Shown in pieces: positions 8,931-56,345 of a stretch of DNA of 64,000 bases (position 1 is its first letter; each line of letters opens with the position of its first letter). The notes beneath the pieces were generated by a model. It made no database searches. It had not been told where the DNA came from and saw only the letters and a program-made list of their open reading frames with translations. The DNA is taken from positions 26,099-90,098 of the forward strand of contig JAUCBJ010007234.1 of NCBI GenBank assembly GCA_032718475.1, given 5' to 3'. This DNA is from Nemertoderma westbladi. Taxonomy: Eukaryota > Animalia > Xenacoelomorpha. A program made the translations under genes and the position numbers.

Positions 8931-8949
8931 TGCGTCGAACCGGGTTGAA

Positions 8950-23910: not shown

Positions 23911-23923
23911 GTTCCTCAACAAA

Positions 23924-30000: not shown

Positions 30001-30100
30001 AGAAAACGATTATAATAAAATTACATAGTAATACATACAGAAATATAAAAATAATAAAATAATATAAAATAATAGAGTCACACACCCACTCCATATGTTG

Positions 30101-31225
30101 TTACGTTATGGAGTCCCTAGATGTTTGAAGGATTAGGGAGGTGGTCGTGGGAAGAGAATCTTGCCTTCCACAGTTTCCGGAGAGTCCTCCATTCCCTTCC
30201 GATAAACACAAACGACCGACTGGGTGATTGAGTCGCTGCATCCTGAATACAATTCCAGGTTTCCTCTTCGTCCTGGAATAGTGACGATAGAAACATCGCT
30301 CAAAGTATATGACGGCGTCACAAAGCCGATTCCAGGAGCTATAGTGGTCCGTCGCTCTCTGTAGGAGAGGTGAGAGTCCCTGCGAGACGTCTGATGTTCC
30401 AGAGCTCCAATCGCTCTCTCTGATCTTCATGAAGGATCCACTCGCGGAGGGGAGGCCCAGATCCACGGCGTCGTCCCTGGCAACATGTAATACCGACAGA
30501 TCTATCCCGGGTTCAAATAACTCCGATCCACCCGTCCGGGTTTCAGGTTCGACTTTCTCCGCTCCCTTGGCTGGTCTAATCTCAGTCGGAGTAAGATGGG
30601 GAGGCCATTCATTCTCCTTACTCAGGAAGTCGGGTTCACCTAACCGATCTATAGTATCTGTTAGTTCTTGAGGAGTTGCTCCTCTGGAAGCGATGTCCGT
30701 TGGATTAAACTTCTTGGGGCAATATCTCCATTGATCTACATTGGAGCTAAGATTGTCATTATCTGAGGAGTGTGGTGTTCCCTCAGTTGGGTCGTCTCCC
30801 TCACTAGTATCGTCTTCCCATTCACTCACCTGGCAGACGCGATCTTGAAGCAGTCTTTCCCTGAGCGTTCTACGGGAAGGTCCAGTAAGGTACCAACCTA
30901 CTCTAGTTCTTACCGCATAGGTCTGTAGTGGCTGCGGTTGAGCAGGCCGTTTCTCTAATGTCTCCAGCGCCTCATGCGCGTTTTGGCCGATGAGTATTTG
31001 CACTCCAGGATAATCAGTCTGGAATCGAGGTATGCTAAGATGTTGGATGCTCTCATCCTCGTCCCAATTATAAAGGTCTGCTTGAGTAGTAGCGAAGTTC
31101 TTTATAGCCACCATTTTCACTGACCTTATGCTATGTTCTCCTAGTTCGTCCTGGGGGGTGGACAACTCACCTATATAATAGTCGGCAGCCACAGCAGATT
31201 TCCAAACCTGCATGATCCCTGACAT
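30101..31225 (-). pseudogene. BEL pol remnant (protease C-terminus fused to RNase H tail)
   Basis: ILIGQNA..YAVRTRVGWYLTGP jumps directly to QWRYCPKKFNPTDIASRG and YSSWNRL. No YVDD RT motif and no integrase. Confidence 0.8.
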
Positions 31226-34200
31226 GTTTAGCTTGGTTCGGAACTTGGGTTGTCCAGCAAAGATGTGCTAGTTCTTTATCGATGAATGTTCCTGTGCTAC
31301 CGGAGTCCAGGAGGGCGTTCACTATATAGCTCTTCTGAGGTCCGTGGACCTGTAACTGGACTACAGGAAATTCTCGGATTCCTATATTGGAAGTTGGAGC
31401 TTTCCAAGATGGTTGTTGATCGGAAGTAGTTAAGGTAAGGTCGCTGTCTGTGTCTTTCTCATACACAAGTGCTCGATACACTGCGGTGGTGTTTATTAGG
31501 TAACAGGATTCGTTTTGGTCGGAGAACTCGTCCGTATAGAATCCTTCCATCTCAGATTGATCAGTGTCGTTCACATCACTGAATTGGACATGTAGTTCGG
31601 ACTCACTTACCTGACTCGGGCTGTTTCGTTCGAATTCCGTGTGCAACAAGATATGATGTTTTGCGCCGCACTTTGCACACCTTGCGTCGGAGTTACAGGT
31701 TCGCCGTTGGTGTCCTCGTCTGAGGCAATTATAACACAACCGCTTATCCCACATGACTTCACGTCTATCCTTTAGTGATTTCCTCAGGAATTTATCACAC
31801 GCATTTAAACGGTGGGGCCCGTCGCACAGCACACATTTCGGCTTGATGTTACTTACTTTAACCTGTGCTATGTGGTGCACACTTGTTCTTTCCTCGGGCT
31901 TTCTCACCTGAATTCTTTTAGGAGACGTAGGAAGGGTTTTTTGTACCGGTTCCCTTCTGTCATTGGGTCGAGACTCGGATTTACTTACCTGATCTTTAGG
32001 CATTTTATTGACATAATAAGATCTGTCAGTGTCTTTCCCGCTGTCCTCTCCTTGAGAAGTTTGGCTTTCACCGTCGTCGGTATAACATACTGGTGTTACC
32101 CTTCTCCTAGAAACGGGTTTCTCACTTACCTTGTTTTCCAATGTCTTCTCTCTGGACTGCCTTAGGAGCTGTAATTTCACTTCTCCATCTAAGAATGACA
32201 TGAGATCAGCCATGGTAGGGTCTCGTCGTCGTTGTTCCATCATATATAACACTTTCTTATCCCAGCGTGTACCTACTCCACCCTTCGGTAAAGCAGAAGC
32301 CACTGCTCTAATAACCATAGCACTCTGATACTCATGAGACTTACCTAGCCAATCTAATTGTCTGCAGATCTCCTGAATTTCATCGGAAAACTCTATAATC
32401 CCGCTGCTAATAAACTTTCGGGGCGCTACCAACTTTGCATACAAATACCCAGCTATGTTATTCCTATTACCATACCTGATGTTTAGTGTATCCCAAACTT
32501 GTCTTAATCCGTCTGGATGTCCAATAAACCTTAACGCCATTAACTTGGGAGATCCTTCCAAGCACTCGATGAGGTATCTAAGTTTTTCTCCATTAGATAG
32601 TACAGAGTTCTGTATATTATCTTTGTAATATTCATTAAAAGGTAACCATTTCATCTCATCTCCATTGAACTTAACGATCTCTCCCACCTTTACCGCTTGC
32701 CGGGCTTCGGTTCTAGCCATTTGACGCGTAAAACTTTCTTGAACCATCGTGTTATTTAATATCGAGTTATCGGTATATAAATTTCTCGGATTATGATCAG
32801 TTCTATAGGGAATGTCATTATCAACAGGTCTATAATTACCCTTAATAGGGTTCACTATAGGAGTTTCTACTTCGCTAGCAGTATATATGCGTGTAGGCTC
32901 CACACCTTGCGCATGCGATACTTCAGACCTAACAGGTTGACACATTGTTACAGAGGGTGGTGGTATACCCCTTTGAGTATTTACTAATTTATCGCGTTCG
33001 AGCGCGATACTTTGCTGCACTTCTTGCAACTCTAGTCTACTTTCCCTTACTGTGCCCTTGAACTGCTGGACAGTCTCCTGCATCTGTCCGAGCAGGATAT
33101 CCATCCCCCGTCGTCTCTCGTCCACCCATTCGACCGCCAAAGCGGGAGTCGCCAACGTTGTAGCGGGCGGACGAGGGACAACGGGCGACAAATCTGGAAT
33201 ATTTCGCTCGGAGTCCAGGGTATGCACTGTCTCATGGACTGTTCTGTTGGGCACAGGTAGCTTAGTGCTGTGCAAAGGGAATTGAGAAGTAGGTTCAGGG
33301 AGTACAGGTGTCTCTACGACCGAAAGGGTAGCTTCGGGAACAGGCCTAATTATTTCAGGCTCATCTACTATAGTAGGGAGTCTCTCTATTGTAATTATTT
33401 GGTCTGTGGGTTCTGTACTACCTACTTTGGTGTTATTTAGTTGCCTTCTAACAGCTGGAGGCAAATCAGGCAATTTCTGCCGGTGGAATGTTCTTTTACG
33501 TCTGCTTAGGCGAGATCGATTTCTTCCGCCTTCAGTGTCGGTGGTATCGCCTTCCTCAGATGATGTATATCCCTGTCTTTTGGGATTAGATCGATTCATC
33601 ATCTGCATATTACTAGCTGTTAACTGTTTATTTATGCAGTCTTGATTCTCCTGAATGTTTTCCAATTCTAATTGGGTGGTTTCTTCAGCCGCTTTCCGTT
33701 CTGCTTCTGCCACTTTTGCCTCTGCCGCTGCCTCTGCCTCTGCCGCTGCCTCTGCCGCTTTTGCCTCTGCCGCTGCCTCTGCCGCTTTTGCCTCTGCCGC
33801 TGCCTCTGCCGCTTTTGCCTTGGCCGCTGCCTCTGCCGCTTTTGCCTTGGCCGCTACCTCTGCCGCTTTTGCGTTGGCCGCTACCTCTGCCGCCTTTGCC
33901 TTGGCCGCTGCCGCCTTTCTTTCTGCTTCTGCAGCTACCACTGCTGCTTTCTTTCTGTCTTCTATGCGTTTTTTCTTTACTTGCTCTTCTTGGACTCGTG
34001 TCAGGCGGAGTTGTTCATCAAATTTGGCCTGATTCGCAGCCCTCATTTCCACATCGATGGCATCCAACACAAGCTTGGTTCCTTCACTATTAGGGCTAAG
34101 TCCCTCTAACCTTCTCCTCAACTCGTCATCACCTAAAAAACGTTGATAGTCTGACAGATAGATGTCAATGGCATCCCTCTTATGCGGTTTCTCTGCTGTC

Positions 34201-34259
34201 ACTTCGCTCTCGGTTGTATCTAGTAGACTGTCTGACAGGTTCTGCTTTGCGTCAGACAT
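31167..34259 (-). CDS. BEL/Pao Gag-protease with Ala/Glu/Lys repeat N-terminus
   Basis: KFNGDEMKWLPF..EKLRYLIECLEG (DUF1759-like); CVLCDGPHRLNAC, CYNCLRRGHQRRTC, CAKCGAKHHILLH knuckles; ALLDSGSTGTFI protease. Confidence 0.9.
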   Translation of the reverse strand: MSDAKQNLSDSLLDTTESEVTAEKPHKRDAIDIYLSDYQRFLGDDELRRRLEGLSPNSEGTKLVLDAIDVEMRAANQAKFDEQLRLTRVQEEQVKKKRIEDRKKAAVVAAEAERKAAAAKAKAAEVAANAKAAEVAAKAKAAEAAAKAKAAEAAAEAKAAEAAAEAKAAEAAAEAEAAAEAKVAEAERKAAEETTQLELENIQENQDCINKQLTASNMQMMNRSNPKRQGYTSSEEGDTTDTEGGRNRSRLSRRKRTFHRQKLPDLPPAVRRQLNNTKVGSTEPTDQIITIERLPTIVDEPEIIRPVPEATLSVVETPVLPEPTSQFPLHSTKLPVPNRTVHETVHTLDSERNIPDLSPVVPRPPATTLATPALAVEWVDERRRGMDILLGQMQETVQQFKGTVRESRLELQEVQQSIALERDKLVNTQRGIPPPSVTMCQPVRSEVSHAQGVEPTRIYTASEVETPIVNPIKGNYRPVDNDIPYRTDHNPRNLYTDNSILNNTMVQESFTRQMARTEARQAVKVGEIVKFNGDEMKWLPFNEYYKDNIQNSVLSNGEKLRYLIECLEGSPKLMALRFIGHPDGLRQVWDTLNIRYGNRNNIAGYLYAKLVAPRKFISSGIIEFSDEIQEICRQLDWLGKSHEYQSAMVIRAVASALPKGGVGTRWDKKVLYMMEQRRRDPTMADLMSFLDGEVKLQLLRQSREKTLENKVSEKPVSRRRVTPVCYTDDGESQTSQGEDSGKDTDRSYYVNKMPKDQVSKSESRPNDRREPVQKTLPTSPKRIQVRKPEERTSVHHIAQVKVSNIKPKCVLCDGPHRLNACDKFLRKSLKDRREVMWDKRLCYNCLRRGHQRRTCNSDARCAKCGAKHHILLHTEFERNSPSQVSESELHVQFSDVNDTDQSEMEGFYTDEFSDQNESCYLINTTAVYRALVYEKDTDSDLTLTTSDQQPSWKAPTSNIGIREFPVVQLQVHGPQKSYIVNALLDSGSTGTFIDKELAHLCWTTQVPNQAKHVRDHAGLEICCGCRLLYR

Positions 34260-35629
34260 GCTTATGTGTACAGTTGAATGTCTACTGCTGTATTACAGTC
34301 TGAGCAAGTCTAGTAACTCAGTATTAACTGCTAGCCTAGTAATTAATTACCGGTACTGCTACTCAGTGTAGCGTGATATATATATAATATATTAGAATAC
34401 CGGTATGCTTATAGTATATATAACTATTATTACAGACTAGGTTTATCACAGAATACCGGTATAATTTTAGCACAAATATATATAAATATATAATAGGCCT
34501 ATCGGAATACCGGTATACAGCTTACTGTTTGTAGTATATATAATTCTAGAATAGAATTAATTACAAGTACCGGTATAATTTCAGCCTAGATTTATAGAAA
34601 TAAGATAATAGGCCTATCGTAAATACCGGTATATCAATTATTTTAGAATAATTGAATTTCTGAACTTTAGGGTTACTTGGTTACTTTAACTTACTTTATT
34701 ACCGTTATTTAAGCAGTAATCCAACTGATATTGAGACCTAATGGTTTTATGGTAGGCCTACTATTTATAAATCGTTAGATTTGATTTATAATGTATTTAT
34801 ACCCGTTTTAATGGGTTTAGTCAATGTTTGAAATAAATGTTATTATTTCTGGGGTAATCACTACACAAAGCGGTGCGCTTTTTAGTGAAGTGTTACGTAT
34901 AGGACACTAAAACAAATAATTCTAATTTACCTAAGTTACTTAATACTACAAATTACGTACAATTCGGGTGAGATTACAATCTCTAAATAAACACAAAAAT
35001 TTACAAAAAAAAAACACAAAATACGAATTTTTAGGGTAATTTTACAAGAAGTCTACAAACCAGCCTAACAAAGGGTTAGATAACCGGTTATTACAACGGA
35101 CAGGGTACTACGGTATTTGAAATAATAAGTAGTAGTAAATACACTGCGTTGTCTAGATAGGAAAATACTACCGCCTGACGACCTATAGCCGTATCGCTAT
35201 AGGTTCTACATTATGTATCACGGAGTGTTCCTACCTAGAAGTTAATAGAGCTAATCGAATGTGCCTATCAACCACTTTACAACACAGATATAATGTCTAC
35301 AATAATTACTTCGGAAAGTACTGTACACTAAACCCTAAATTAGGTACGAGTACTTGTACAACAAATAATCAGTAGTTAAATATACTTGAACAGCTAAAAG
35401 AACCACGGCATCTGCTGGAGTGACCGATGCACAAAATCACCAGTCTTTACCTACGCCGAGCAGCCCGTGTAGTACCGGGGTTAATTTAACTATAGCGGTA
35501 TGTATAACAAACACAATTACTGTAGGAACAAACTTGGGGAATGAATGTTGCGGATAATCGCATAAACTCTGAATAATAAATATTACGCTACGCGTACAAA
35601 CCACTCAAACAAAATACAGACCGAACACT

Positions 35630-36140
35630 GACAGACTACTATCAAGCCTAAACAAACTACGGTATATGCAGACTCCGAAATGATTAGGGAGTATGCGCTC
35701 TAACCCAGTAGGGCGACTTATTCTTTAGTTGGGGGTTTACCTTACAGCGTTCGCTGCCCCTACTGCCTAACCGTACTTAATCGGACAGATGATCTACACA
35801 CGCGGCAATCCGTTCAGACCTAATAATAGCCAGACAACTATCCAGCCTACAAATTATCTAAGTAAAATTATACGCTACCCGTACAGACTTACACAAACAA
35901 AGTACAGACTAAACGATGGCAGACTACTCTCAAGCCTAAATAAACTACAGGACATGCAGACTCCGAAATGATTAGGGAGTATGCGCTCTAACCCAGTAGT
36001 GCGACTTATTCTTTAGTTGGGGGTTTACCTTACAGCGTTCGCTGTCCCTACTGCCTAATCGTACTTAATCGGACAGGTGATCTACACACACTGCAATTCG
36101 TTCGGACTTAACAGCAATCAGACAACAGCTCAGCCTACAA
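35630..36140. repeat. Tandem duplication (~288-bp period) in the BEL A 5' leader
   Basis: gactccgaaatgattagggagtatgcgctc... occurs at 35671 and 35959. Confidence 0.85.
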
Positions 36141-36483
36141 ATCGTCTGTACAATCTGATCAGGCTTACACGCCTTCTGTTCAATACTGGCCTACAAATAA
36201 ATAAAACTTGACAGAAATAAGTAAAATCTCAATAAAAAATCAGGGCGGCCGTTCCCTGATTAAGTACTAAGACCTACCGGTATACAACAATCAAATCAAA
36301 TAATACTAGTGTACTTATACGGAAGTACCGGTTAGGACAGCTAGGCCTACGGAATACAGAAGTACCGGTTCTAGCGGTTGGGCCTACTGACTACTGACCT
36401 ACAGATGTACCGGTTCAGGTTTACCGGTTGACCGGTACTTTCAACTTTATTGCTTACTGCAACAAAGAAGCTATATCCTTTAA

Positions 36484-37688
36484 TGTTCGCGCTTTCAGAC
36501 CTTTGGCAGTTTAACCCACCAAATTAAGATGTCTTCTAGATATTAAATCGGTTTTTAGTCTATGACAAGTATTTGATTCACTACACTAGTCGAAACCAAT
36601 CTGTGCGCGATCATTCACCCGCTGGATATTCCCGGGAGATTGGGTTCGACGGTTTAATTTTATTGCTATGTAACTATGCTATTGCTATGTAGTATTATTC
36701 GACTGACAGTACTATATAATCTCTGACAATATTATTCACCTTCGGTAATATTAACAGTTCCTTTAGGACGTGGCGCTTTATCTATATAAACAGAGTTATG
36801 ACTTAAACTACTCACAACGATCTGGCTTAATTATAATTCACATATATGGCGCATTCTTTAGGAATTGCTTCTTTAACAGACTCACTCATACACAATGCTG
36901 CACAATACTGCACACTAATCTGCCAATCTTCACTGATTTTAGTCACATATAAAAGGAACACAGACTGACTCATGTAGGGTCTATCAAATAACATTAGATT
37001 CACTTCAAACCACTTTAACATAAGTCACAATCGTTTATCTGTAACCCTTCTCTCTTACCTTCGGTATATCAAGAATATTGGGTTTCGGGGTTATTTATCG
37101 TTATTCCAAATATAATAATTCATCAACCATATTATGAAGAACTGACGGTAAATAGCAGTATAAAACAACAATGAAAACACTGATTGTTATGAGTTTGCAA
37201 TGTTTCAGCAGTCAGTATGTATGATCAGTTAGCAGTTAAAGGATATATGTCCTTGTAATTAAACCTACTAGTGTAAGACTAAAAACTGAAACACGGAGGT
37301 GCCAAAAGCCGGTTCTTAGGCTCTGAGCAAAAACATAACACTGAACTACTGAGTTTCTGTATATACCTCCAACACAGAGATAACAAACGCTCTGATTGGT
37401 CAACCTGAACAACGAGAGAACAGAGAAACAAAGAAACGTCGACGTGGCAATATCAGCTGCTAGCCGTCGTCATGGTAGCGACACTGTTTTCAAGAGTATC
37501 GAGCTTTTACGTCACGGAATTACGGATTATGTCCTCTAAAGTACAAATACAGAAGAAATAGCTTTTATGTCCGCTAAAACACCAGTACAGCAAGGACACG
37601 GCCCTTTTATGCCTGGTAAACCAACTACAGAGTATTTTACGGGAAAAATAAGGAAAAATAACCGGACAATTCAGCAAAAGCTTTTACA
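36484..37688 (-). repeat. 5' LTR of BEL element A
   Basis: Direct repeat of 25891-27087. Confidence 0.95.
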
Positions 37689-37693
37689 GAGTA

Positions 37694-39200
37694 TTTATCA
37701 CTATGCAGCTAATTGCTTTCAGAGGAGGATTGGAGTTGACGACAATGAAACCGCCCACTTCTGTGATGGTCAAGGGGAGACAGTCAGTGAGGAAGTTGAT
37801 GTTCTTCTTACAAGTTACAGAGACATTTCAGGTATGTTTAATGATAAGGGGATGATTTTGGTGAGAGTGATGATGTGTATGTTTTAACAGCTGAGACCAA
37901 TGTGTATTTAGAAGACACTATTGGGTTAGCAATTCTGGACTCTGGCTGTACCAAATCAGTGTGTGGGCAGTTGTGGTATATGGCATATCTAGACAGTCTC
38001 AGCGATATTGAAAAATCGGAGGTTGTTGAAACTCCAAGTTGCACTTTATTTAGGTTTGGTGATGGGAAAAACGTGATATCTGACAAATGTGTGAAGATTC
38101 CTTGTCTAATTGGCAATAAGCGGGTTCATGTCCAAGCATCAGTGGTATCATGCAATATTCCTCTATTACTCTCTAAACATTCATTAGCTAAGGCAAATGC
38201 AGCTCTTGATTTTAGAAAGAATGAAGTAATAATGTTTGGACAAAAGATTCCAACTGTTGATAATATTGCAGGGCATTTTTGCATATCTATTGCATTAGTA
38301 AAGGAAGTTCACATTTCGTGTGAAATAAAGTCAACTGATGAAATGAAGAAAGTAGCTATAAAGTTGCACCGCCAGTTTGCACATGCACCAGCAGATAAAT
38401 TAGTTCGTTTAATTAAGGGGACTGGAAGTGTTCCAGAAGGGCTAGCAAATCAGTTAGAAGAAATTCAAAAAAGTTGTGACATATGTCGCAGATTTAACAA
38501 GCCACCGCCTAGGCCTGTTGTTGGTCTACCAATAAGTAATGAGTTCAATGACACTATTGCATTAGATCTGAAGTTTATTAATAACAATATTATTCTACAT
38601 TTGGTAGACACATTTACTCGTTATCGTTCTGCCTGTGTGCTTTGGAGTAAACAGTCTCACAAAGTAATTCAAGGAATTTTTAAATCGTGGATAATTACAT
38701 TTGGCCATCCTCGGAAATTTCTTGTAGATAATGGAGGTGACTTTAACAATGCGCAATTTATTAATCTTGCTGAAAATTTTAACATAAGAGTTCTACCTAC
38801 TGCTGCTGAATCACCATGGTCCAATGGTCTGTGTGAACGGCAGAACGCAGTTCTTGGCTTAGATGTTCAAAAGATAATGGCTCAAGAAAAATGTGAAATT
38901 GATGTGGCAGTGGCATGGGCAGTTGCTGCTCGCAATGCATTAACTAATGTTCATGGGTTTTCACCCAATCAATTAGTTTTTGGAAAAAATCCAATGCGTC
39001 CCACAGTAGAGGATAATAAACTACCCGCCTTGGAAGGTAACATCACAAGCACTGTAGTTGCAGACAATCTTAATGCCATGCATGCTGCTCGTCAGGAATT
39101 CATTAAAAATGAATCATCAGAACGGTTACGCCGTGCTCTAAAACACAATGTAAGAGATAGTGGGGATAAGGTTACCAGTGGTGAATTGGTGTATTATACT
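37694..39200 (+). pseudogene. GalEa gag end, protease and integrase (one frameshift near 37870)
   Basis: LAILDSGCTKSVCG; FRFGDG; LHRQFAH..CDIC (HHCC); IALDL, VDNGGDF, SPWSNGLCER (DDE). Confidence 0.9.
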
Positions 39201-39314
39201 TTTTTGTACATAGTTCATCTGTATTTTTGAGTCAGATTTGTCAGAAACCGAGATTTCGTGACTTTTCCTACAATTTACTATCCAAAATAGCAAACGCCAT
39301 TTATGTGGCTATAG

Positions 39315-41659: not shown

Positions 41660-42119
41660 TATATATATTTATAATCAGGATGAAGCCATGGTAGTGGCAC
41701 GGTGTTAGGGTTAAGCCCCAAAACAATAAAATAAATGTTAAGACGAAAAATACGGAAAGGTATAATACGCACATACATTGAAGTTGATACATACATTGAT
41801 TATGAAGTTCATGCGAGGAGGAAAACTCAACTTCGACTGGTTTACCTACAATGGGGATAATGTAAAGGTGACCAACTCTTACACTTAACTGGGAACCACC
41901 CTCTTTACCACACTTTCCTTCAGTACAGTAAGCACATCCTATCAATAACTTGTAAAGCGATGAAGGCTATTCACAAGATCAAAGACCCTCGCAGTTTGTC
42001 GCTACATACATCTCTCAAATTGTTGAAGTCAAAGTGACACCAATAAATTCCTAGGGGGTACATACCTACCTGCACCTGCTAAAATCTCGAGATTTTGAGA
42101 ACATCGACAAATTAAAGAA
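41660..42119 (+). mobile_element. LINE (CR1/Daphne-like) RT C-terminal fragment inserted in the Gypsy 3' LTR
   Basis: IMKFMRGGKL..FTYNGDNVKVTNSYT*LG..KAMKAI. Flanked by cttaaaa(t/g)atgta on both sides, after which LTR similarity resumes. Confidence 0.5.
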
Positions 42120-42142
42120 CTTAAAAGATGTAAGTACAATAT

Positions 42143-42682
42143 TGTTAGCTTATTCAATCCCGCCAACACCCCATAAAGTTATAAGCCGATAAGCAATATT
42201 GGGAGCCACGAGATTGGGCAATTAACCAACTCGTGCCATCCCAATAAGAGTGGGAAGGAAGCACACAACAAGGGTCAGGGGCCAAACCCGTAACCCAGAG
42301 GAAATAGGTGGAGTGAACGGGAACACTTCAGAGGGCGCCAACAAGGGTATTAACCAATCAGAGGGGGGAAAGGCATCGATTGAGTAGCAATAAGGCCACC
42401 GTGCAATATAACCAATAACCTATTAATCAGTGATTCAGTTATCTCAGTGCAGCAGTGCTAGCGTAGGTTGGTAGTCAATTAGTTTAGTTAGGGGATCACG
42501 GGACTTTAGTTACCGTATCCCACCTTGTACACATTATATCTATATCTATATCCTATGCCCTATTATTATTATACACCGAACTTCAGAACTCAGTTACTTT
42601 CTTTCATCCTTATACACGGCGGGGACGCGTGGACTAAATTACCACACCGGATAAATCGGGATCCCTCCTGGATCCCGTCACA
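42143..42682 (+). repeat. 5' LTR of BEL element B
   Basis: Direct repeat of 55805-56345. CCAAT (~42355), TATA-like (~42405) and TCAGT initiator-like (~42435) motifs. Confidence 0.95.
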
Positions 42683-42763
42683 GTAACTAAATCCGAGGAA
42701 GAAGCCCCAGTTGAACATCAAGAACTGCAGCCTAGCTAGCCGAACCATCAGCCACCAGTTGAG

Positions 42764-45127
42764 ATGAGTGAATCGGGCGAGACACCGACGCGGACCCCGG
42801 ACGAAGATCAAACGATCCGCGAGGCCGCGACCAAGCGATACAGGCCCACGACGCCGGAGCCATCGATAACGGGCGAACCGGAAGTCCAGAACGAGGAGGG
42901 TCTGGAACCCGAAGTCGAGCCAAAGGAAAGGGAGAGCGAGCCGGAGGGAGAAGGAGATGAGTCGACACGGAATGGAGAACGGCGCGCCGATGTCGCCGGC
43001 CAGCTACCGGCCGAGGGCGACGAGCGACCCACCGAAACGGCGACGGTGGGGCCGACGGTGCGACGCCGGACGCGAAGAGACGGAGGAGAGATCGGTACTG
43101 ATGTCGCCGGCCAGCTACAGGCCGAGGGCGACGGATGGCCCACCGGAATGGCGACGGTGGAGCCGCCGGTACGACGTCGAACCTGGAGGGACGGAGGAGA
43201 GGTCGGCGACGAGGACGTCGGGGTCTCCGATCGACTTCGACGGGCTTACATCGCGACCCGGAGACTACTAGAGAAGGCCAGGAAAGGGAAAACGGTAGAC
43301 GAGGTGAGACTGAGAAAGCGACTAGGTGAGTTGGATAGACACTTTAATTATCTAATACGTTTTGGGCAGAGAGAACTAGCCGAAACGAGAGCACGTGAGG
43401 TTGCCGGGGAACTGTTTGAACTATGGGAATGTGGGAGTATGGAACCTAGCGTAGCGTCAGTGTACATAGGGCCATACTTGGTCGATGCCCGGGGAGTAAA
43501 ACCAGTGGGTTGGAGGGGACTCGAAGGGGGCGAATCCGAGGTTAACCCCGAGGATTCGGCCTCGTCGGTCGGAGAAAGCTCCGGGAAGCGGGGGAAAGTT
43601 AGTAGGTCGGGAAGGCGGGGGAAGTCCGTCGTAACCGATAAGTCTGTTACATCCTCCGCGAAAGAAAGAGCGGTGAGAGAAATAGGTGCCGCATACCGTC
43701 TCAGCATGGCAGAGCAAGGTCAGAGAGAAATGGAGAAACGGCTAGAGGAGGGGAGAGTGCGGTTAGAGAGGGAAGCGGCATTGATTAAAGAAACCGGAGA
43801 GAGGGCCGAAAGGGCTTTGAAAAGCCTAAGGGAGTGTGATGAGATAGAGGAAAGGGAGTGTAGGGAGCGTGAGGCGAGAGAGGAAAGGGAACGCAAGGAG
43901 CGTGAGGCAAGGGAGGAAAGGGAACGCAAGGAGCGTGGAAGGGAACGCAAGGAATATGAGGCGAGAGAGGAAAGGGAACGCAAGGAGCGTGAGGCGGAAC
44001 GTAAGGAGTATGAAGCGAGAAGGGAAAAGGAACGCAAGGAGCGCGAAGTGAGACGAAGGGAGAGCATTAAGAGTGCAGCAGAGTCGGCCATCAGGGACAC
44101 CCAGGAGTGTGAGAGGAGACTGGCAGAGGCTGAAAAGGAGCACAAGGAATTAGAGAGACGGCAGAGTGAGTTTGCGGGAAATAGGATTAGACGGGAGCAC
44201 GAGTTGGAATTCGTACGAGCGACGCCGTCTGAAAGCGGGGCCGGCTCGAGTATTTTTGAGGAGCCGGAGGCCGTAGATACATTTATTAATACCCCACTGA
44301 CAGGTACCGCACGACAGACCCAAAACTGGTGCGACCGTACGGGCGGGGGGGGGGGGGGGGGTAATAATAATAATGGTACAGTAGACGTTGTTAATATTGA
44401 TAATACCGTATGGGACAACACTAATCAAACCTTTATTACAGGAAATACTTTGCCTAGTGGTAGTAATTTAAATTTAAATCAGAACAATCCCAATATTAAT
44501 GTAGGAAATAATTCTAATATTGATGTAGTTACGCAAAATAATTCAAATAATCAAAATAATAACCCAAGTTCGAACCTACAAAATAATTTAAATAACGCAG
44601 TTACGCAAAATAATTCGAATAATTTAAATAATGACCTATGCCCGAATTTACAAAATAATTCAGATAACGTAGTCGCGCAGAATAATACAAATGATTTTGT
44701 TTCAAACGAGCAAATTAATTCCGTTTCCAATATGGGTGCTATTAATGTAAACACGTCGGGCCTACATAACCAGGCGGAAGAGGGCCTGGTAGGTCACATA
44801 GTCGGTAGCCAGACGGATGAGGGCCTGGTAGGCCACGTAGATAGTAGACAGGGAGCAGAGGGCCTGGTAGGCCACGTAGTTGGTAGGCAGGGAGTAGAGG
44901 GCCTGGAAGGCCACGTAATAGCAGGGGGAGAGGCGGGGGTGAATAGACCCGACCGCAGTAGGGTTGATGTGTCGACTAGAGAGGTATATAATAGCGGGGA
45001 GAGAGGTAGCGAAGTTAGATGTAGCGAGTGGGGGGGGGGGGGGCTACGAGGACCCCATAACAGAGAGTTAGCGGCGAGAGGGGGGGGGGGGGGGGGCAGG
45101 GAGTGTCCCACAGCCGTCAGCGGATAA
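42764..45127 (+). CDS. BEL B ORF1: N-terminal Gag extension (Glu/Arg coiled coil, Asn-rich and GLVGHV repeats); probably continuous with ORF2
   Basis: 787-aa ORF starting ~80 nt after the LTR. The ORF2 frame is open from the poly-G at ~45080-45096. Confidence 0.8.
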   Translation: MSESGETPTRTPDEDQTIREAATKRYRPTTPEPSITGEPEVQNEEGLEPEVEPKERESEPEGEGDESTRNGERRADVAGQLPAEGDERPTETATVGPTVRRRTRRDGGEIGTDVAGQLQAEGDGWPTGMATVEPPVRRRTWRDGGEVGDEDVGVSDRLRRAYIATRRLLEKARKGKTVDEVRLRKRLGELDRHFNYLIRFGQRELAETRAREVAGELFELWECGSMEPSVASVYIGPYLVDARGVKPVGWRGLEGGESEVNPEDSASSVGESSGKRGKVSRSGRRGKSVVTDKSVTSSAKERAVREIGAAYRLSMAEQGQREMEKRLEEGRVRLEREAALIKETGERAERALKSLRECDEIEERECREREAREERERKEREAREERERKERGRERKEYEAREERERKEREAERKEYEARREKERKEREVRRRESIKSAAESAIRDTQECERRLAEAEKEHKELERRQSEFAGNRIRREHELEFVRATPSESGAGSSIFEEPEAVDTFINTPLTGTARQTQNWCDRTGGGGGGGNNNNGTVDVVNIDNTVWDNTNQTFITGNTLPSGSNLNLNQNNPNINVGNNSNIDVVTQNNSNNQNNNPSSNLQNNLNNAVTQNNSNNLNNDLCPNLQNNSDNVVAQNNTNDFVSNEQINSVSNMGAINVNTSGLHNQAEEGLVGHIVGSQTDEGLVGHVDSRQGAEGLVGHVVGRQGVEGLEGHVIAGGEAGVNRPDRSRVDVSTREVYNSGERGSEVRCSEWGGGGLRGPHNRELAARGGGGGGRECPTAVSG

Positions 45128-45203
45128 TGCAAGGGCCGAAATAGGTAAACCGCAACAACCGGCGACGGAAAGTAACAGGGGGATTGCGGGTATCCCCAGC
45201 GGC

Positions 45204-48200
45204 GTGCGACCGAGCAGAGAGAGACAGGTTGACGTCGCGAGAGGGCGGACGAAGCGTCGAGCCCGATCAGAGGAGGGAAGAAAAACAGTGGGGTTTAACC
45301 GGGAGGTCGATGAGAGATCTCACGAGCGGGAATATTCCACTGATAGGAGAAGAAAGGAAGACAGTAGTAGAAGTATCGCCGCGAACGATAGAAGAGCGAG
45401 GACGGATAGCGAGCCGTCGGTAGTCGAGATGAGAACGGAGAGTCAGTGGGGTCGGACTCCGGGAGATTGCCGTCGCCCCGGAGAGATGCGATCCGGTGAG
45501 ATGCATTACACGCCGAGAGAGGGGTACACGATGTACCGGTACGAAGATGAGGACAGAAGAGAGGGGGGTCGAAGAGAAACTTTCCGACGGAATATACCTG
45601 CCGATCGAGAATACGGTAGCCGCGGGGAGGATTATTCGAGAAGAATAAACTTCGATCCCGAGAGACACATGCAGACTGTAGGACATACTGTAGGCCTTAC
45701 TGCACATACCATAGGCCATATTGAGAGAGGCTATGTAAGCGATAGGATAGCGCGGACGACGGAATTAAGCCCGGAAGTCGCGGAATACATACCGGCGAGT
45801 AGGCCAGAAGCTGATAGGCCTATACCGGTACCAGCACAGCAGTATGACTACAGCATGCAGGGACATAACATATACCCAGGGGAGGGGGGAATTATTGCGG
45901 ATAGGTGCATGGGCCCCAACATATTAACATCAACCCCATTACCAAACATACCGGTGGGGGGGGGGGGACAGGGTGACATTCCCCCATCACAATATCAACA
46001 ATATACCCCGATGGTAGCAAGAACAACGAGACCCTTGGACGAAAACAGGTCGTGTGACACAGATATATGGAGGGGGCCGCTACCCCCGATGACGTACCCA
46101 AGCCAGAGAAAATCAAGAAATAGGACAGACGGAACGCACCAGGCAGGGGAAACTATACAGCACCCGTCGAATCCATTGGAAGCGCAGGCGATAGGGATGG
46201 CCACGTTGATCGATGCTTTGAAAACGAGGATCGAGTTACCACCCGTGGAACCATTCAAGTTCGATGGGAGTAGGCCGGAAGAATATTTGCAGTTTCGGCG
46301 AATGTATAGTAACGAAATACTAACAAAAAACTTGATGCAGGCGGAGTGCCTAAAGTATCTACAAGTGTACACGGGAGGCCCAGCATACGACATCGTGAGG
46401 CAATATCAGGGAATAGAGGGCGGCTTCACGACAGCATGGCGGGCACTGGATAGGGAATACGGGCACCCGGCCAAGATCATCAGGCAGACGCTGAGAGGCA
46501 TAACATCGGGTGGCCTACAGGATAACCCCGTTAGCATTAAGACGTTTGCAAACAAAGTCGAGAAAGCGCTGATCGTGCTGAAGACGCTAGACGCGCCATA
46601 CGAGCTCAACGCGTCCAATAACATCACCACGATAGCGCAGGCACTACCGAACTGGTTGCGCAACAAGTGGAGGAAGATCGCTTTCTCCACTCGAGACAAG
46701 AAGGGTGCGGAACCGGGTTTAGAAGAAATGTCAAACTTCTTAAATTACGAGGCTGAACTAATAACGGACCCAGTCTATAGTGAAGATAGCCTGGGAAAGG
46801 GACCAAAGACGGATCACTACAGGCCGAAACCAGAGCACAATACATCAAACGCATTGCCGAGGCTCAGGCAATCATTGCCATACACAGCGACGCAGGGGAC
46901 TGCAAGTCCACAGGCAAACGAAGATAAGACAACATCATGGAACGGACAGGGGAACAATAACAACATGAATAAACATAACCCCAGTACGTCCAGTAGGCCA
47001 AATCCAGTCAATAAGAATAGTAGGGACTTTGGTACGAATATAACTGCGATACGCAATGCATTGTATAAAGAGGGCTACGACCCAAAGAGCAAATGCCAGT
47101 TACACGCAAATGCGCTTCATAAAACCATGAACTGCAGGTACTGGCAGGCGCTACCGAGGCAAGACCAGATAGATTACGCGTCGAGCAATAAATTCTGCTC
47201 GCGATGTGTGAAGAGTGGACACAAGGCCAGGGAATGCCAAGAGAAGCCGGTCAAGTTTGGCCAAAGGAGAGGCCAAACGATGGCAACGAGCACGGTAGGG
47301 GCGAAGAAGAGAGGCACGGTGTTACTTGGAGTAGTACCGGTGCGAGTGATCGGGGAGGGCAATCGATCAGTAACAACACTAATGCTGGTTGATAGTGGAG
47401 CTGCCTTCACATTAGTCGAGGAATGGGTAGCCGAAGAAATAGGATTGAGAACAAGGCCAAGCAGAATGGCGGTAACAACCATCTCTAGCAAAGATGAGAT
47501 CCTAGAGATGAGGACAGGACGGTGCGCAATTGCAGCAGTGGCACCAGGATGCGATTATGGGGCAACCATCGACCCCATCCAAGTAATAGAGTCAATTAAC
47601 ATCAATGCCAGGCGGCCAACCAACATCGAGGTCGAGCAATACAAATTCCTGGACGACATTGACTTCTCGATCCCAGACGTGGACGTTAGGAAGGTATCCA
47701 TCATAGTAGGAATGGACTGCCCGACGGCCCACGAAAGAATGCAAACGGTCTTCGGCGAAGACAAGCAGAGTGACCCGGTGGCCATATTAACACCATTCGG
47801 GTGGACGCTGAGTGGTCCAATTAAGAGCAAGATACCATTCAGGATGTCGGAGACATCAGGATGCATGTTCGCGGGAACAATGCAGGAAATGGGTGATGAG
47901 GGAGCAGAGGAGCAGCTTAAAAGACTGCTCAGACAAGACTTTGAGGGACTGAAAGAGACCGGGGTCGGGACCTCGGTAGAAGACAAGCAGGCTCTACAAA
48001 GCGTGGAGGAATCGATGACGTGTGATGAGGGGCGGTATACAATAGGAATGGTATGGAAACTACCGAAGATACCGCTACCCGATAATAGAGGGATGGTAAT
48101 CACGAGACTCCGCAAGCTGAAACAAACACTAAAACGGAGCCCCGAGAAGAACGAGTACATTCACAAAACGATTAAGAAGTACGTCGAGAAAGGATGGGCC

Positions 48201-51200
48201 GTGGAGTTACCGGTCGACGAGCCGAACACGGACAGGACATACTACCTGCCACTCCACGTAGCTTTAGACCCAAAGAAAGGTAAACTTAGGATGGTAGTCG
48301 ATGCATCGGCAAAGACCGACGGAAAGTGCTTAAACGACTACCTACTAGAGGGCCCAAACATATACAATTCGGGCATAGAAGTACTACTTAGATTTAGGAA
48401 TGGGAAACACGCCTTCACGTGTGACATAGAAGGCATGTTCAACCAAGTCCGTGTAACAGAGGAAGATAGCGACAGTCAACGCTTCTTATGGTATAACGGC
48501 GAGGAAGAACCGCCTATAGTACCGGCATATAAGATGGTAGTACAAAACATGGGGGCCAAGTCGTCCTCATTTACGACGACTATGGCAGTGAGAGACACGG
48601 TGAAGGGGAAGGAAGATAGATACAGCAGTAGGGCCGTCGATATGATCCGACGCGGCTTCTACGTAGACGACGGTATGGAGTCTGGAAATACGGTTGAGGA
48701 GATACTGGAAACAGGGCGCGAGGTTCGCGACATCCTGAAAGGATCCGGCTTCAACCTGACCAAATTCCAATCCAGTTCAGAAGAATTTATCAAGGCAATA
48801 GAGGACAAGAAACCAGAATCGACCATGGACAACCCTACAACAGCCAAAGGACAGGACATGGCGAATAAGAGAACACAATCTCAGCAAAAGGCATTGGGAA
48901 TCGTGTGGGATAGAGGAACAGACGAACTGAAGTATCAGCTGAGCCAGGAGGGCGCAGACACCCATACGAAGAGGGGTTATGTATCGTATATAGCAAGGAT
49001 ATACGATCCCCTAGGCCTAGCATCCCCATTACTAGTCACGGGGAAACAGATACTCAAGAGAGTATTTAAATTGAAGGATGAGTGGGACGTAGAGGTACCA
49101 GAGGACATCAAGAAACAGTGGAGCAAATGGACAGGAGACTTGGAGAGGATGGGAACATACAACATGCCGCGAGCGTATTTCCCGGACGGGAACATGACGA
49201 ATCTGGACCTACATATGTTCTCCGACGCGTCGTTAGAGGCATACGGGGCGGCACTCTATTTAGTACAACGAGAGGGGCCTCACAAGCCCAGACTAGCCTT
49301 TAGCAAAGCTAAGTCAACGCCGCCAGATTCAGCATCTGTTCCCAAGTTAGAATTGACAGCTGCGAGACTAGGAGTTAGAGCCACAGCCTACCTAGTGGAT
49401 ACAATTCCCAACATAGTGGAGACACACTACTGGACGGACTCCATGGTAGTGCTTGGTTGGCTACACAACGAAAAGACGAGGTACCCGATATTCGTCGCGA
49501 ATAGAGTGGACGAAATAAGGGCGAGCACAGAACTGGAAAGGTGGCACTACTGCCCAACAGACGAGAACCCAGCGGACCTGCTGTCGAGGGGCGTGGAACG
49601 CCACACTTTCTTAAAGAAGGAAGTATTGTGGCAGCATGGGCCACAATTTCTGAGCGATAGAGAGGCCTGGCCGCCGATGAGGAAGGTGGACCCGGGCTCG
49701 GAACCAATATCAGAAGGAGAGGGAGATTCAGAGGGAGAAGAGATATACTCCCAGATGGTGAGGGAGATTAGGGACGTGCAACCAGGAAGGGAACTGTGCG
49801 ACAACCCGACGGATAAACTCCTCAGCTACAGTTCCAGTTGGTATAAGACCAAGAAACTAGTGGCGTACTGGAGAGCCTTTGGGAATTTCCTTGCGGGAGT
49901 CGGCAAGGACAAGAAGACCAGGATAACCATAGATCTGGAAGGAGCGGCCAAGGCAGTGATCCGCTATGAACAACGCAAGAACTACGGCGACGAGGTGGAA
50001 CGTGTCGGTAACCAACAGCACCTCCGACGGGATAGCGAGTTGATCACGCTGTCGCCACAACTCAACGAGGACGGGATTCTAGTAATGAATTCTAGGGTGG
50101 GATATAACAACAGTATAGTCGTGCCACCGAAACCCATCATCATTCCCACAGGATCGCCTATAGTCCACCAGATCATATGGGACTCCCACAAATCGATACT
50201 GCATGGGGGCACCAACCGAACCCTCACAGAGATAAGGAGGACCTATTGGGTCAAACAACTAAGGAAGAAGGTTAAAGCGGTAGTGGGGCAGTGCCAGACC
50301 TGCCGACGAGCGAAGAAGGAACGAGCCGTACAGGAGATGGCGCCACTACCGGCGAGTAGGGTAAGACAGCACGACCCGCCATTTACGCATTGCGGTGTGG
50401 ACATGTTCGGGCCGATAAAGATCAAGGTGATGCGACACACGGAGAAACGCTATGGTATTATCTCCGTATGCAACAATACGCGGGCGGTAGGGATAGAACT
50501 CGCCCAAGATGCAACCGCATCAGCATTCATTAACGCCCTAGAAAGGTTTAGGGACCGCAAAGGTGGGACGATCGCAGTGATATACAGCGACAACGGCACC
50601 AACTTTGTGGGCGCAGAGAGTGAGATGACAGAGGCCTTAGACATCTTGGAGGGAGAAGAAGTCAGGGCGGCCATGAGAAGACGACAAGTGAAGTGGGAGA
50701 GAAGGACGCCGTATGCACCACATACATTAGGATGCGTCGAGAGACTCGTGGGCAGTTCAAAACGTCTAATGACGAAGCTAATGAACACCAACATGGTCAC
50801 TGAGGACGTTTTACGGACAGTACTTGCGAAGTGCGAGGGGATCATTAATAGCAGACCGCTATATCCGGAGAATGATGACCCTGAGTCGTTAGACGTGCTG
50901 ACGCCTAGCCATTTCCTGATGGAAAGGCCAGCGACCATCGATATGCGGGGTGTAGACCCAGATGACATACACTCCCGCCAAAGTTGGAAAGTCGCTAAAG
51001 CAATAAGCGCAGAGTATTGGAGGAGGTGGGTCGAGGAATACCTACCCACGCTCCATAAGCGAAGCAAGTGGAGGAAGCCGAACAGGGAGTTAAGAGAGGG
51101 AGATCTCGTAATCGTTACGGATGATACTATCATCAACAACCAGTGGCGGTTGGCGAGAGTTGTACGCACTTACTCCGATGAGGACGGAAGAGTCCGATCG

Positions 51201-51296
51201 GTAGAAGTGCGAATAGGTGGGAAGATAGGTGCGAAGGACAGAAAAACCTACAGGAGAGCGGTAGGCAAATGCTGTCTCCTAGAAGGGGCACCTTAG
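45204..51296 (+). CDS. BEL/Pao Gag-Pol polyprotein (Gag, knuckles, protease, RT, RNase H, integrase)
   Basis: KFDGSRPEEY; CSRCVKSGHKAREC; LVDSGAAFTL; YYLPLH..KLRMVVDAS; DIEGMF; FYVDD; LHMFSDAS; HYWTDS; CPTDENPADLLSRG; H-H-CQTC; VDMFGP; YSDNGTNF; GCVERL; LTPSHFL; YWRRWVEEYL. Confidence 0.96.
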   Translation: MRPSRERQVDVARGRTKRRARSEEGRKTVGFNREVDERSHEREYSTDRRRKEDSSRSIAANDRRARTDSEPSVVEMRTESQWGRTPGDCRRPGEMRSGEMHYTPREGYTMYRYEDEDRREGGRRETFRRNIPADREYGSRGEDYSRRINFDPERHMQTVGHTVGLTAHTIGHIERGYVSDRIARTTELSPEVAEYIPASRPEADRPIPVPAQQYDYSMQGHNIYPGEGGIIADRCMGPNILTSTPLPNIPVGGGGQGDIPPSQYQQYTPMVARTTRPLDENRSCDTDIWRGPLPPMTYPSQRKSRNRTDGTHQAGETIQHPSNPLEAQAIGMATLIDALKTRIELPPVEPFKFDGSRPEEYLQFRRMYSNEILTKNLMQAECLKYLQVYTGGPAYDIVRQYQGIEGGFTTAWRALDREYGHPAKIIRQTLRGITSGGLQDNPVSIKTFANKVEKALIVLKTLDAPYELNASNNITTIAQALPNWLRNKWRKIAFSTRDKKGAEPGLEEMSNFLNYEAELITDPVYSEDSLGKGPKTDHYRPKPEHNTSNALPRLRQSLPYTATQGTASPQANEDKTTSWNGQGNNNNMNKHNPSTSSRPNPVNKNSRDFGTNITAIRNALYKEGYDPKSKCQLHANALHKTMNCRYWQALPRQDQIDYASSNKFCSRCVKSGHKARECQEKPVKFGQRRGQTMATSTVGAKKRGTVLLGVVPVRVIGEGNRSVTTLMLVDSGAAFTLVEEWVAEEIGLRTRPSRMAVTTISSKDEILEMRTGRCAIAAVAPGCDYGATIDPIQVIESININARRPTNIEVEQYKFLDDIDFSIPDVDVRKVSIIVGMDCPTAHERMQTVFGEDKQSDPVAILTPFGWTLSGPIKSKIPFRMSETSGCMFAGTMQEMGDEGAEEQLKRLLRQDFEGLKETGVGTSVEDKQALQSVEESMTCDEGRYTIGMVWKLPKIPLPDNRGMVITRLRKLKQTLKRSPEKNEYIHKTIKKYVEKGWAVELPVDEPNTDRTYYLPLHVALDPKKGKLRMVVDASAKTDGKCLNDYLLEGPNIYNSGIEVLLRFRNGKHAFTCDIEGMFNQVRVTEEDSDSQRFLWYNGEEEPPIVPAYKMVVQNMGAKSSSFTTTMAVRDTVKGKEDRYSSRAVDMIRRGFYVDDGMESGNTVEEILETGREVRDILKGSGFNLTKFQSSSEEFIKAIEDKKPESTMDNPTTAKGQDMANKRTQSQQKALGIVWDRGTDELKYQLSQEGADTHTKRGYVSYIARIYDPLGLASPLLVTGKQILKRVFKLKDEWDVEVPEDIKKQWSKWTGDLERMGTYNMPRAYFPDGNMTNLDLHMFSDASLEAYGAALYLVQREGPHKPRLAFSKAKSTPPDSASVPKLELTAARLGVRATAYLVDTIPNIVETHYWTDSMVVLGWLHNEKTRYPIFVANRVDEIRASTELERWHYCPTDENPADLLSRGVERHTFLKKEVLWQHGPQFLSDREAWPPMRKVDPGSEPISEGEGDSEGEEIYSQMVREIRDVQPGRELCDNPTDKLLSYSSSWYKTKKLVAYWRAFGNFLAGVGKDKKTRITIDLEGAAKAVIRYEQRKNYGDEVERVGNQQHLRRDSELITLSPQLNEDGILVMNSRVGYNNSIVVPPKPIIIPTGSPIVHQIIWDSHKSILHGGTNRTLTEIRRTYWVKQLRKKVKAVVGQCQTCRRAKKERAVQEMAPLPASRVRQHDPPFTHCGVDMFGPIKIKVMRHTEKRYGIISVCNNTRAVGIELAQDATASAFINALERFRDRKGGTIAVIYSDNGTNFVGAESEMTEALDILEGEEVRAAMRRRQVKWERRTPYAPHTLGCVERLVGSSKRLMTKLMNTNMVTEDVLRTVLAKCEGIINSRPLYPENDDPESLDVLTPSHFLMERPATIDMRGVDPDDIHSRQSWKVAKAISAEYWRRWVEEYLPTLHKRSKWRKPNRELREGDLVIVTDDTIINNQWRLARVVRTYSDEDGRVRSVEVRIGGKIGAKDRKTYRRAVGKCCLLEGAP

Positions 51297-51404
51297 AGTG
51301 GAGTTAGAGTGGAGTTTAGTCGTCCAAGTTTTGGACTGAAGGGGGGTGGGATTGAGGGCGAGACGCCCTTCCCACACAAATAAAATAAAAATAAAATAAA
51401 AAAT

Positions 51405-52055
51405 AGTTAGTTAGTTAGTAGGTACGTAGTGCCTAGAGTTAGTTAGTTAGTAGGTACGTAGTACCTAGAGTTAGTTAGTTAGTTAGTAGGTACGTAGTGC
51501 CTAGAGTTAGAGAGTTAGTAGGTACGTAGTACCTAGAGTTAGTTAGTTAGTAGGTACGTAGTGCCTAGAGTTAGAGAGTTAGTAGGTACGTAGTACCTAG
51601 AGTTAGTTAGTTAGTAGGTACGTAGTGCCTAGAGTTAGAGAGTTAGTAGGTACGTAGTACCTAGAGTTAGTTAGTTAGTAGGTACATAGTGCCTAGAGGG
51701 TTAGTAGGTACGTAGTACCTAGAGTTAGTTAGTTAGTAGGTACGTAGTACCTAGAGTTAGAGAGTTAGTAGGTACGTAGTACCTAGAGTTAGTTAGTTAG
51801 TAGGTACGTAGTACCTAGAGTTAGAGAGTTAGTAGGTACGTAGTACCTAGAGTTAGAGGGTACGTAGTACCGCTAGTTAGAGTTAGAGTTAGAGGGTACG
51901 TAGTACCACCAGTTAGAGTTAGAGTTAGAGGGTATGTGGTACCGCTAGTTAGAGTTAGAGTTAGAGGGTACGTAGTACCGCTAGTTAGAGTTAGAGTTAG
52001 AGGGTACGTAGTACCGTTAGTTAGAGTTAGAGGGTACGTAGTACCATTAGTTAGA
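51405..52055. repeat. Minisatellite between pol and ORF3 (agttagtaggtacgtagtacctag variants)
   Basis: Seen directly; units of ~30-39 bp. Confidence 0.95.
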
Positions 52056-52539
52056 AGAGAGAGAGTAAGAGGTAAAAGGGGTAAATAGGATATAGATATT
52101 AGTTAGCAGTAAGTAGAGTTAGTAGCGAGAGGGGGGCATATGAGTACAGCTGGGTAAATCGTGTGGCCACACGACGTATACTGCTGTACTGCATAGGCCC
52201 ACAAAGTAGGCCAGAATATGGATTAGAGAATAGAATAATCCATAGGCAGTAATAGGTAGTAGGACAGTAGAATTAAAATAAATAGAATAGGGCTGAAAGT
52301 TAGAAATAGTGGCAACACAAGGGAAGTCGTTCTAGAACATAATAAAAGTAACGGACAGAAATTGTAAATTAGGCTCATTTACTAGCTTCAAAATTAATTA
52401 GGTTAAATTTAGGCTAAAAGGCGCAATTAAGTAGAAAGTAGGCCATTATCGAACCGTACGAAACATCTTAATACATCACTCATCTGTATTGCGCCTTGGT
52501 AAGGCACCACCCTGCAGGTGAGCGAGTGTAGTGTTCGGA

Positions 52540-55804: not shown

Positions 55805-56345
55805 TGTTAGCTTATTCAATCCCGCCAACACCCCATAAAGTTATAAGCCGATAAGCAATATTGGGAGCCACGAGATTGGGTGATAACCAATTCGTGCCAT
55901 CCCAATGAGAATGGGAAGGAGAACCACACCACAAGGGTCAGGGGCCAAACCCCTAACCCAGAGGAAATAGGTGGAGTGAACGGGAACACTTCAGAGGGCG
56001 CCAACAAGGGTATTAGCCAATCAGAGGGGGGAAAGGCATCGATTGAGTAGCAATAAGGCCACCGTGCAATATAACCAATAACCTATTAATCAGTGATTCA
56101 GTTATCTCAGTGCAGCAGTGCTAGCGTAGGTTGGTAGTCAATTAGTTTAGTTAGGGGATCACGGGACTTTAGTTACCGTATCCCGCCTTGTACACATTAT
56201 ATCTATATCTATATCCTATGCCCTATTATTATTATACACCGAACTTCAGAACTCAGTTACTTTCTTTCATCCTTATACACGGCGGGGACGCGTGGACTAA
56301 ATTACCACACCGGATAAATCGGGATCCCTCCTGGATCCCGTCACA
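55805..56345 (+). repeat. 3' LTR of BEL element B
   Basis: Follows the PPT; ends gtcaca. Confidence 0.95.

Follow-up and report, generated by a model that had tools for sequence, protein, structure and literature searches.

Complementarity of leader and own LTR suggests self-priming of reverse transcription in BEL/Pao retrotransposons

Element B (42143-56345) is a BEL/Pao LTR retrotransposon of 14.2 kb with an open pol, and no tRNA-type primer-binding site follows its 5' LTR. How, then, could such an element start reverse transcription? B lies in the window, by which we mean the whole 64,000-nucleotide stretch of DNA that was analysed, and in this window, from an animal-type genome, transposons are nested in one another. 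Replication of the Belpaoviridae is described as poorly understood in the ICTV profile of the family (PMC8742986). Priming of reverse transcription in BEL/Pao is essentially unstudied.

Two BEL elements and their leaders

The 5' LTR of B (42143-42682, plus strand, like all features of B) has 540 bp, is bounded by TG...CA and shows 97.6% identity to the 541-bp 3' LTR (55805-56345), which is adjoined by a polypurine tract (55796-55804). ORF1 (42740-45127) codes for 795 amino acids from stop to stop, with coiled-coil and low-complexity parts and without a Pfam match. The open gag-pol frame (45072-51296, 2074 amino acids) contains DUF1759, an aspartyl protease, a reverse transcriptase with YVDD at 1197, Peptidase_A17 in the RNase H region, an integrase zinc finger and DUF5641. 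The domain order, PR-RT-RH-IN, is the one expected of Belpaoviridae, and on this domain set B was assigned to BEL/Pao; PF05380 or PF03564 was present in 120 of 120 homologues among the matches listed. An array of 32- and 36-nt repeats (51312-52062) separates pol from a third frame, ORF3. The two LTRs differ at 13 positions, 11 of them clustered in 42219-42290, and a target-site duplication is absent, the left flank ending in AATAT and the right flank beginning with ACCGC; thus B may have arisen by recombination between two copies. B sits in DNA_pol_B_2-like sequence (41800-42142 and 56346-57728; Pfam E 8e-5 for 56910-57728), presumably a Polinton-type element. Neither a relative nor a copy of the LTR-leader junction was found among viral contigs.

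The 5' LTR of B ends in CCCGTCACA and GTAACTAAATCC starts directly after it at the primer-binding site position (42683-42694), with no TGG. The LTR itself contains TTTAGTTAC at 42505-42513, unchanged in the 3' LTR at 56168-56176. Positions 42505-42513 are complementary to 42683-42691 in 9 perfect pairs, and beyond a single bulged C (42504) GGA at 42501-42503 pairs with 42692-42694, giving a duplex of -12.4 kcal/mol. The segment 42501-42513 is thus a putative self-primer of B. In all these particulars, from the coordinates and the missing TGG to the 9 pairs and the 3 past the bulge, the initial annotation was right. An 18-nt site complementary to the 3' end of a host tRNA, as in the ICTV profile, was found neither in B nor in the second BEL element of the window, element A, and the 64-kb window holds no tRNA. 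The missing site lowers the generality of that profile and not the protein-based assignment of B.

The same geometry is seen in element A (25891-37688, minus strand), a BEL derivative that keeps gag and protease, has lost its reverse transcriptase and is flanked by a 5-bp target-site duplication, TACTC. Its 5' LTR (36484-37688, minus strand) has 1205 bp; the site position (36472-36483, minus strand) is again without TGG, and the putative self-primer (37238-37249, minus strand) matches it in 12 perfect pairs, with 7 more gained past an internal loop, for a duplex of -19.4 kcal/mol. When offsets from -15 to +59 were scanned, the length of the own-LTR match was maximal exactly at offset 0 in both elements. 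No blastn match better than E 0.34 exists between the LTRs of A and B, so that, as had been noted before, the geometry is kept with other letters. In both elements a C follows the primer, opposite the LTR-terminal A, which the initial annotation had also seen; the mismatch itself follows from how a match is defined, and only the preference for C (9 of 13 elements, B included) is informative. A also has a long leader, with about 2.2 kb before gag, in which a stretch of 288 nt is duplicated in tandem and ACCGGT motifs recur (35603-36147).

A itself interrupts a Copia-type gag (23719-25890 and 37689-39230), in the part that codes for the zinc knuckle. The host element is a GalEa, broken near 24350 by another insertion. 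Directly after its 174-bp LTR the GalEa element has a tRNA-Met site (23893-23904, plus strand), TGGTAGCAGAG at 23893, i.e. TGGTAGCAGAGC, identical to the GalEa1 site quoted in an extract of PMC3587641. It therefore serves as the internal control that had been proposed, and its leader matches its own LTR over only 3-5 nt at best. Elsewhere in the window, long inverted repeats form two pairs, of 428 and 236 bp (7082-10242 and 2490-15801); the inner pair encloses an array of 10-nt repeats, and both are probably DNA transposons.

How often would such matches arise by chance? The 12-nt match of A was reached by 1 of 5000 dinucleotide shuffles of its LTR, by 47 of 17934 random window positions taken as LTR ends (12 nt in 1205) and by 3 of 1500 random leaders in a flexible search that allowed offsets 0-4 and spliced matches. 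For the 9-nt match of B the corresponding counts were 24 of 5000 shuffles, 136 of 18124 positions (9 nt in 540) and 24 of 1500 leaders. These counts include the shuffled-LTR comparison that the initial annotation called for. For B the 9-mer taken alone is only modestly significant, given the flexible search; it is suggestive and not strong. A rule of 10 bp has been used for calling self-primers (extracts of PMC6317226). The perfect match of B is below this strict rule; in Tf1-type self-priming the site pairs with the own LTR over about 10-11 nt, which A reaches with 12 perfect pairs and B with 9 plus 3 past a bulge.

Leader and LTR in BEL relatives

From metagenome contigs 78 BEL loci were chosen by patterns from the best matches of B, and in 13 of them the 3' end of the LTR was apparently fixed by a repeat boundary. 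Locus L046, whose repeat does not end in CA, was excluded, leaving 12 bounded loci, and L033 was excluded since its 3' copy extends to the end of the contig; L046, labelled TGG-type in the tree, looks spliced by eye. The leader matched its own LTR over 10-15 nt in 11 of the 12 bounded loci, which amount to about 10 independent cases because L029 and L060 are related. Only 3 of the 12 are contiguous like B (10-11 nt). In 8 the match, of 11-15 nt, runs across a canonical intron inside the LTR, with donors GTAAGT, GTAAGC or GTACGT and YAG acceptors in all 8. This splitting of the complementary segment by an intron, seen in most relatives, had not been part of the initial annotation. The remaining locus, L026, has a TGG site and an own-LTR match of 5 nt, so that in both controls with a TGG site (GalEa and L026) the own-LTR match stays at or below 5 nt. 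The site of L026 (843-862), which we take to resemble the end of tRNA-Tyr, belongs to a family nested among self-complementary families, and given this locus the priming mode may switch within the clade.

Leaders fit their own LTRs and not those of others. In a 14 x 14 matrix of own and foreign pairs, A and B included, foreign pairs reached 10 nt in 4 of 182 cases; the diagonal summed to 156, a value reached by 0 of 200000 permutations (best shuffled, 131), with the entry for B being 11 from a weak splice candidate, its contiguous score being 9. The duplex starts 0-4 nt from the LTR end in A, in B and in 11 of the 12 bounded loci, and in 10 of 13 elements, among them B, the site starts with GT and the primer ends with AC. 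A scan of unbounded loci was exploratory (67 of the 78 were long enough), and contiguous matches of 10-12 nt were equally common on the control strand. In L011, L032 and L071 the spacer between LTR and site (TT, TT, TTCA) mirrors that between the polypurine tract and TG (AA, AA, TTAA). Both spacers are zero in A and B, whose cDNA ends would accordingly be blunt, with no 3' processing.

A second collection held 19 loci (L079-L097), which are animal BEL contigs within 19 stretches of bacterial MAG assemblies, most likely host contamination. Four were bounded and three of these scored 11, L080 and L082 being spliced and L090 contiguous; the fourth, L088, reached 8 and was missed by the strict test, and by eye pairs at 10 of 11 positions across an intron. 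L080 and L082 are sister families of otherwise near-identical context, in which the exon end CAC and leader GTG of the one stand against TAA and TTA in the other. These are two compensatory changes, with two paired positions altered on both sides. Covariation, which had been named as a check on self-priming, is therefore seen between these sister families; no compensatory pair was seen within the family of B itself.

The first base copied in minus-strand synthesis determines where the LTR ends on its 3' side. A duplex that lies 0-4 nt from this end, in letters specific to each family, thus fits a self-primer and not a host RNA. Self-priming appears to be the best reading, and its support reaches well past A and B, the position of a short duplex being conserved with different letters. 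The two elements of the window would belong to a contiguous form, while in many relatives this segment seems to be joined from the two sides of an LTR intron.

Could one form arise from the other? In L025 a 536-nt intron (137-672) lies exactly where the 3' LTR of L018 (6694-7103), of the same family, is contiguous; the two LTR pieces of L018 agree to 88% and may derive from separate copies. Here the intron was apparently lost precisely, as by reverse transcription of spliced RNA, and B could descend from an intron-bearing relative by intron loss, a change seen this once. In a midpoint-rooted FastTree of 108 RT-RH sequences, from which A is absent as it has no RT and in which no labelled reference of a named clade (BEL, Pao, Tas, Suzu, Sinbad, Dan, Flow, Sparrow, Surcouf) stands among the hits, one large clade contains the spliced, contiguous and TGG types intermingled. 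B, about 35% identical to every relative, forms a long branch adjoining this clade and lies outside the clade that gave the covariation.

A spliced primer in B itself was also considered. Removal of 170 nt (42313-42482) would give an 11-nt match at offset 1 through a second copy of TTTAGTTA at 42483-42490, a score reached by 2 of 1500 random leaders in the junction search, and the piece removed resembles the introns of relatives in size and position. Its donor, however, is GTGAAC and its acceptor is pyrimidine-poor (6 of 13), against the GTAAGT, GTAAGC or GTACGT donors of all 8 spliced relatives. Since the 8-mer nearly repeats the main site in tandem, the score is not independent; the primer would end in TA and not AC. 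The junction was absent among the 13 joints listed, and no intron-bearing variant at the primer of B occurs among the joints and loose ends listed. The candidate was rejected on splice-site quality and is very improbable.

RNA folding, family variation and a possible mechanism

If the contiguous segment of B is the primer, its RNA has to reach the site. Folded globally, B has no advantage over shuffles (z 0.60 and 0.34), and the probability of the primer-site duplex ranges from 0.0 to 0.96 over 21 windows, i.e. the fold is bistable and depends on the window chosen. For A, whose partners are 752 nt apart, the duplex probability was 0.0 in 10 of 10 single-strand folds. The initial annotation had spoken of a conserved self-priming fold; what survives of this is the position of the duplex, kept in 11 of 12 and 3 of 4 bounded loci, and not a fold that the predictions bear out. 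In B a local hairpin (42492-42521, -13.5 kcal/mol, rank 29 of 498 LTR windows) is predicted to compete by hiding the primer segment. A primer-hiding hairpin as a general feature found no support, the ranks being 29/498 in B, 573/1163 in A and 27/135, 35/158 and 301/368 in others. Two further elements are predicted in B: a G-rich segment (42619-42628), which pairs just 3' of the primer and closes a multibranch junction, and an 8-bp U5 hairpin (42657-42677) just before the LTR end.

The family of B is very high-copy, as judged from contigs of public DNA runs, and its variation could be compared with this fold, which was predicted without the variation data. Over 42470-42715 there are 28 listed substitutions at 25 positions, all within 42526-42667; none of the 28 falls in 42470-42525 or 42668-42715, with the reservation that variants near stretch ends are under-reported. 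Variable positions made up 2 of 66 strongly paired positions and 23 of 125 others (Fisher p 0.003), the contigs not being independent copies and X1 and X2 being one sample. Among the substitutions listed none affects the hairpin 42492-42521 or 42609-42644, and the U5 hairpin has a stem free of them and three variable positions in its 5-nt loop (42665-42667). Divergent contigs of the family (7 in X1, 7 in X3 and 2 in X6) remain similar as far as 42697, so subfamilies keep the site. A search of other family copies for a TGG form of the site, which would have spoken against self-priming, found none among the variants listed. The conserved positions in the family could instead reflect integrase or promoter constraints.

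It is against this background that a chance match, with B priming in some other way, has to be judged. Such a view may draw on the mere 9 nt, on the 24 of 1500 leaders under the flexible null and on the phylogenetic isolation of B. But A, independently, shows the same register over 12 nt, B has the GT start, the AC end and the following C in common with its relatives, and the variation in its family avoids paired positions. Coincidence is accordingly assigned only a minimal probability.

The pairing could also be structural, serving to cyclise the RNA for strand transfer, packaging or the control of translation, while priming falls to a host RNA, for instance a tRNA fragment. Bistable folds would suit a switch, and the ICTV profile names tRNA-Arg or tRNA-Gly as primers for the family (PMC8742986). 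However, the letters of the site differ from family to family, always fit the own LTR and co-vary with it. One host RNA cannot fit sites that are different in every family. There is, moreover, no reason for a structural stem to start 0-4 nt from the LTR end each time, and Rfam gave 0 matches at 42100-42800. A structural role with a host primer is rather improbable.

That B is primed by its own RNA in one way or another is, on the sequences compared, likely. We favour, with moderate confidence, a route in which this RNA is cut by RNase H in the manner of Tf1. A segment of the 5' LTR would fold onto the primer-binding position, and the competing hairpin (42492-42521) would have to be opened by Gag acting as a chaperone so that the duplex can form in the particle. 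The RNase H of the element, as in Tf1, would then cut after 42513 at the edge of the duplex and free a 3'-OH, from which the reverse transcriptase would copy the 169 nt lying between the LTR end and the cut, and then jump to the 3' repeat. The primer would probably be internal to the transcript. A TATA-like motif (AATATAA) and TCAGTT, which we take to be initiator-like from its consensus, lie 30 nt apart at 42405-42440 (A of the latter at 42437) and place a putative transcript start about 75 nt before the end of the primer. In A similar motifs place it about 100 nt upstream. TATA-like motifs of relatives lie at 43, 135 and 226-251 nt and are lacking in most, so that no common distance exists.

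An own-RNA primer could also arise without a cut by RNase H, if a short LTR transcript or the 3' repeat anneals and a 3'-5' exonuclease trims it to the duplex edge. In B this might be the product of ORF3 (52522-55089), a protein of 855 amino acids with three C-terminal Cys/His knuckles. Its N-terminal part resembles 3'-5' exonucleases of the DNA_pol_A_exo1 type by language-model features (ESM Atlas 0.93, 176 of 256 features; PF01612 on 50% of the matched cluster). By eye it has what we assume to be plausible DxE, D and Y...D motifs. Pfam, PDB and two homologue searches gave no match, the single-sequence model, with a pLDDT of 32, does not confirm the DnaQ-like fold with four acidic catalytic residues expected of a DEDDy exonuclease, and ORF3 was not env-like by any test run; an exonuclease-like protein is a lead only. 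A possible splice acceptor lies near 52518, before ORF3. Trimming of a strand annealed in trans would explain why the partners in A, 752 nt apart, stay unpaired in cis folds, and the 3' LTR carries an identical primer segment. Against it, the exonuclease-like part gave no tblastn match in the 78 BEL loci, which carry the signature nevertheless, so that ORF3 is not needed for the signature. DEDDy-type ORF3s are, moreover, accessory genes in unrelated retroelements (extracts of PMC5408684). Priming by trimming is, in our view, unlikely, and the RNase H route remains the preferred one.

A wider picture is possible and decidedly tentative. A broad marine BEL/Pao lineage would self-prime, often through LTR exons joined by the spliceosome, with splicing licensing replication; A and B would use an intron-free internal primer gated by a hairpin, and the added exonuclease of B may finish the primer end.

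Known and predicted self-priming elements and the biology of BEL/Pao

Self-priming has been reported for Tf1/sushi, Tj1 and Tcn1 (extracts of PMC6317226, PMC4600332, PMC7175516 and PMC6934838). In Tf1/Tf2 of Schizosaccharomyces pombe, Tj1 of S. japonicus, Tf1/sushi and Tcn1, as in B, there is no tRNA site, and about 11 nt of the own LTR RNA can pair with a site that adjoins the 5' LTR (extracts of PMC7175516, PMC4600332 and PMC6317226). In Tf1 the first 11 bases pair with the site and RNase H cuts between bases 11 and 12 (extracts of PMC7175516). The Tf1/sushi group, however, are Ty3/gypsy chromoviruses, while B has BEL/Pao domains. In Tf1 the first 11 nt of the RNA serve as primer, whereas the primers of B and A are probably internal and those of many relatives are split by an intron, and RNase H cleavage, demonstrated for Tf1, is a prediction for B. 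In the plant Ty1/copia TAR lineage (Houba, Osr-1) self-priming has likewise been predicted from LTR-to-site complementarity, but these are plant Copia elements with a contiguous match and a prediction only (extracts of PMC6317226). With Belpaoviridae (Semotivirus) B shares the LTRs, a PR-RT-RH-IN gag-pol, the polypurine tract and the optional third ORF (PMC8742986). It differs from that profile, which gives an 18-nt tRNA-Arg or tRNA-Gly site and 4.2-10 kb (PMC8742986), in having no such site, in its 14.2 kb and in a third ORF that resembles an exonuclease and not env. The bdelloid elements Vesta and Juno also have a third ORF, in which a 3'-5' exonuclease-like domain is combined with Cys/His motifs (extracts of PMC5408684); they are of other lineages, and the likeness of B rests on one language-model search.

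Term look-up in the BEL/Pao surveys PMC554778, PMC3118150 and PMC6238403 found no passage on the primer-binding site, and extracts of PMC3601003 and PMC6338049 added nothing on BEL priming. In the literature searched, with subscription journals and Repbase mostly outside it, there was no report of self-priming or of a splice-built primer in BEL/Pao. Self-priming in B and its relatives is unforeseen by the reference descriptions of BEL/Pao. A nematode Cer element is said to encode its own primer, which could pre-empt part of the claim.

Self-priming predicts RNA ends at 42513/42514 in B and, in relatives, an exon junction at the RNA-DNA joint. B, being open and high-copy, is suitable for looking for the predicted ends. 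If true, this would be a third independent origin of self-priming, in animals and with an internal or splice-built primer, and the definition of the family would change. It would also explain why tRNA-based annotation finds no site in such elements, and would tie the replication of a retrotransposon to host splicing.
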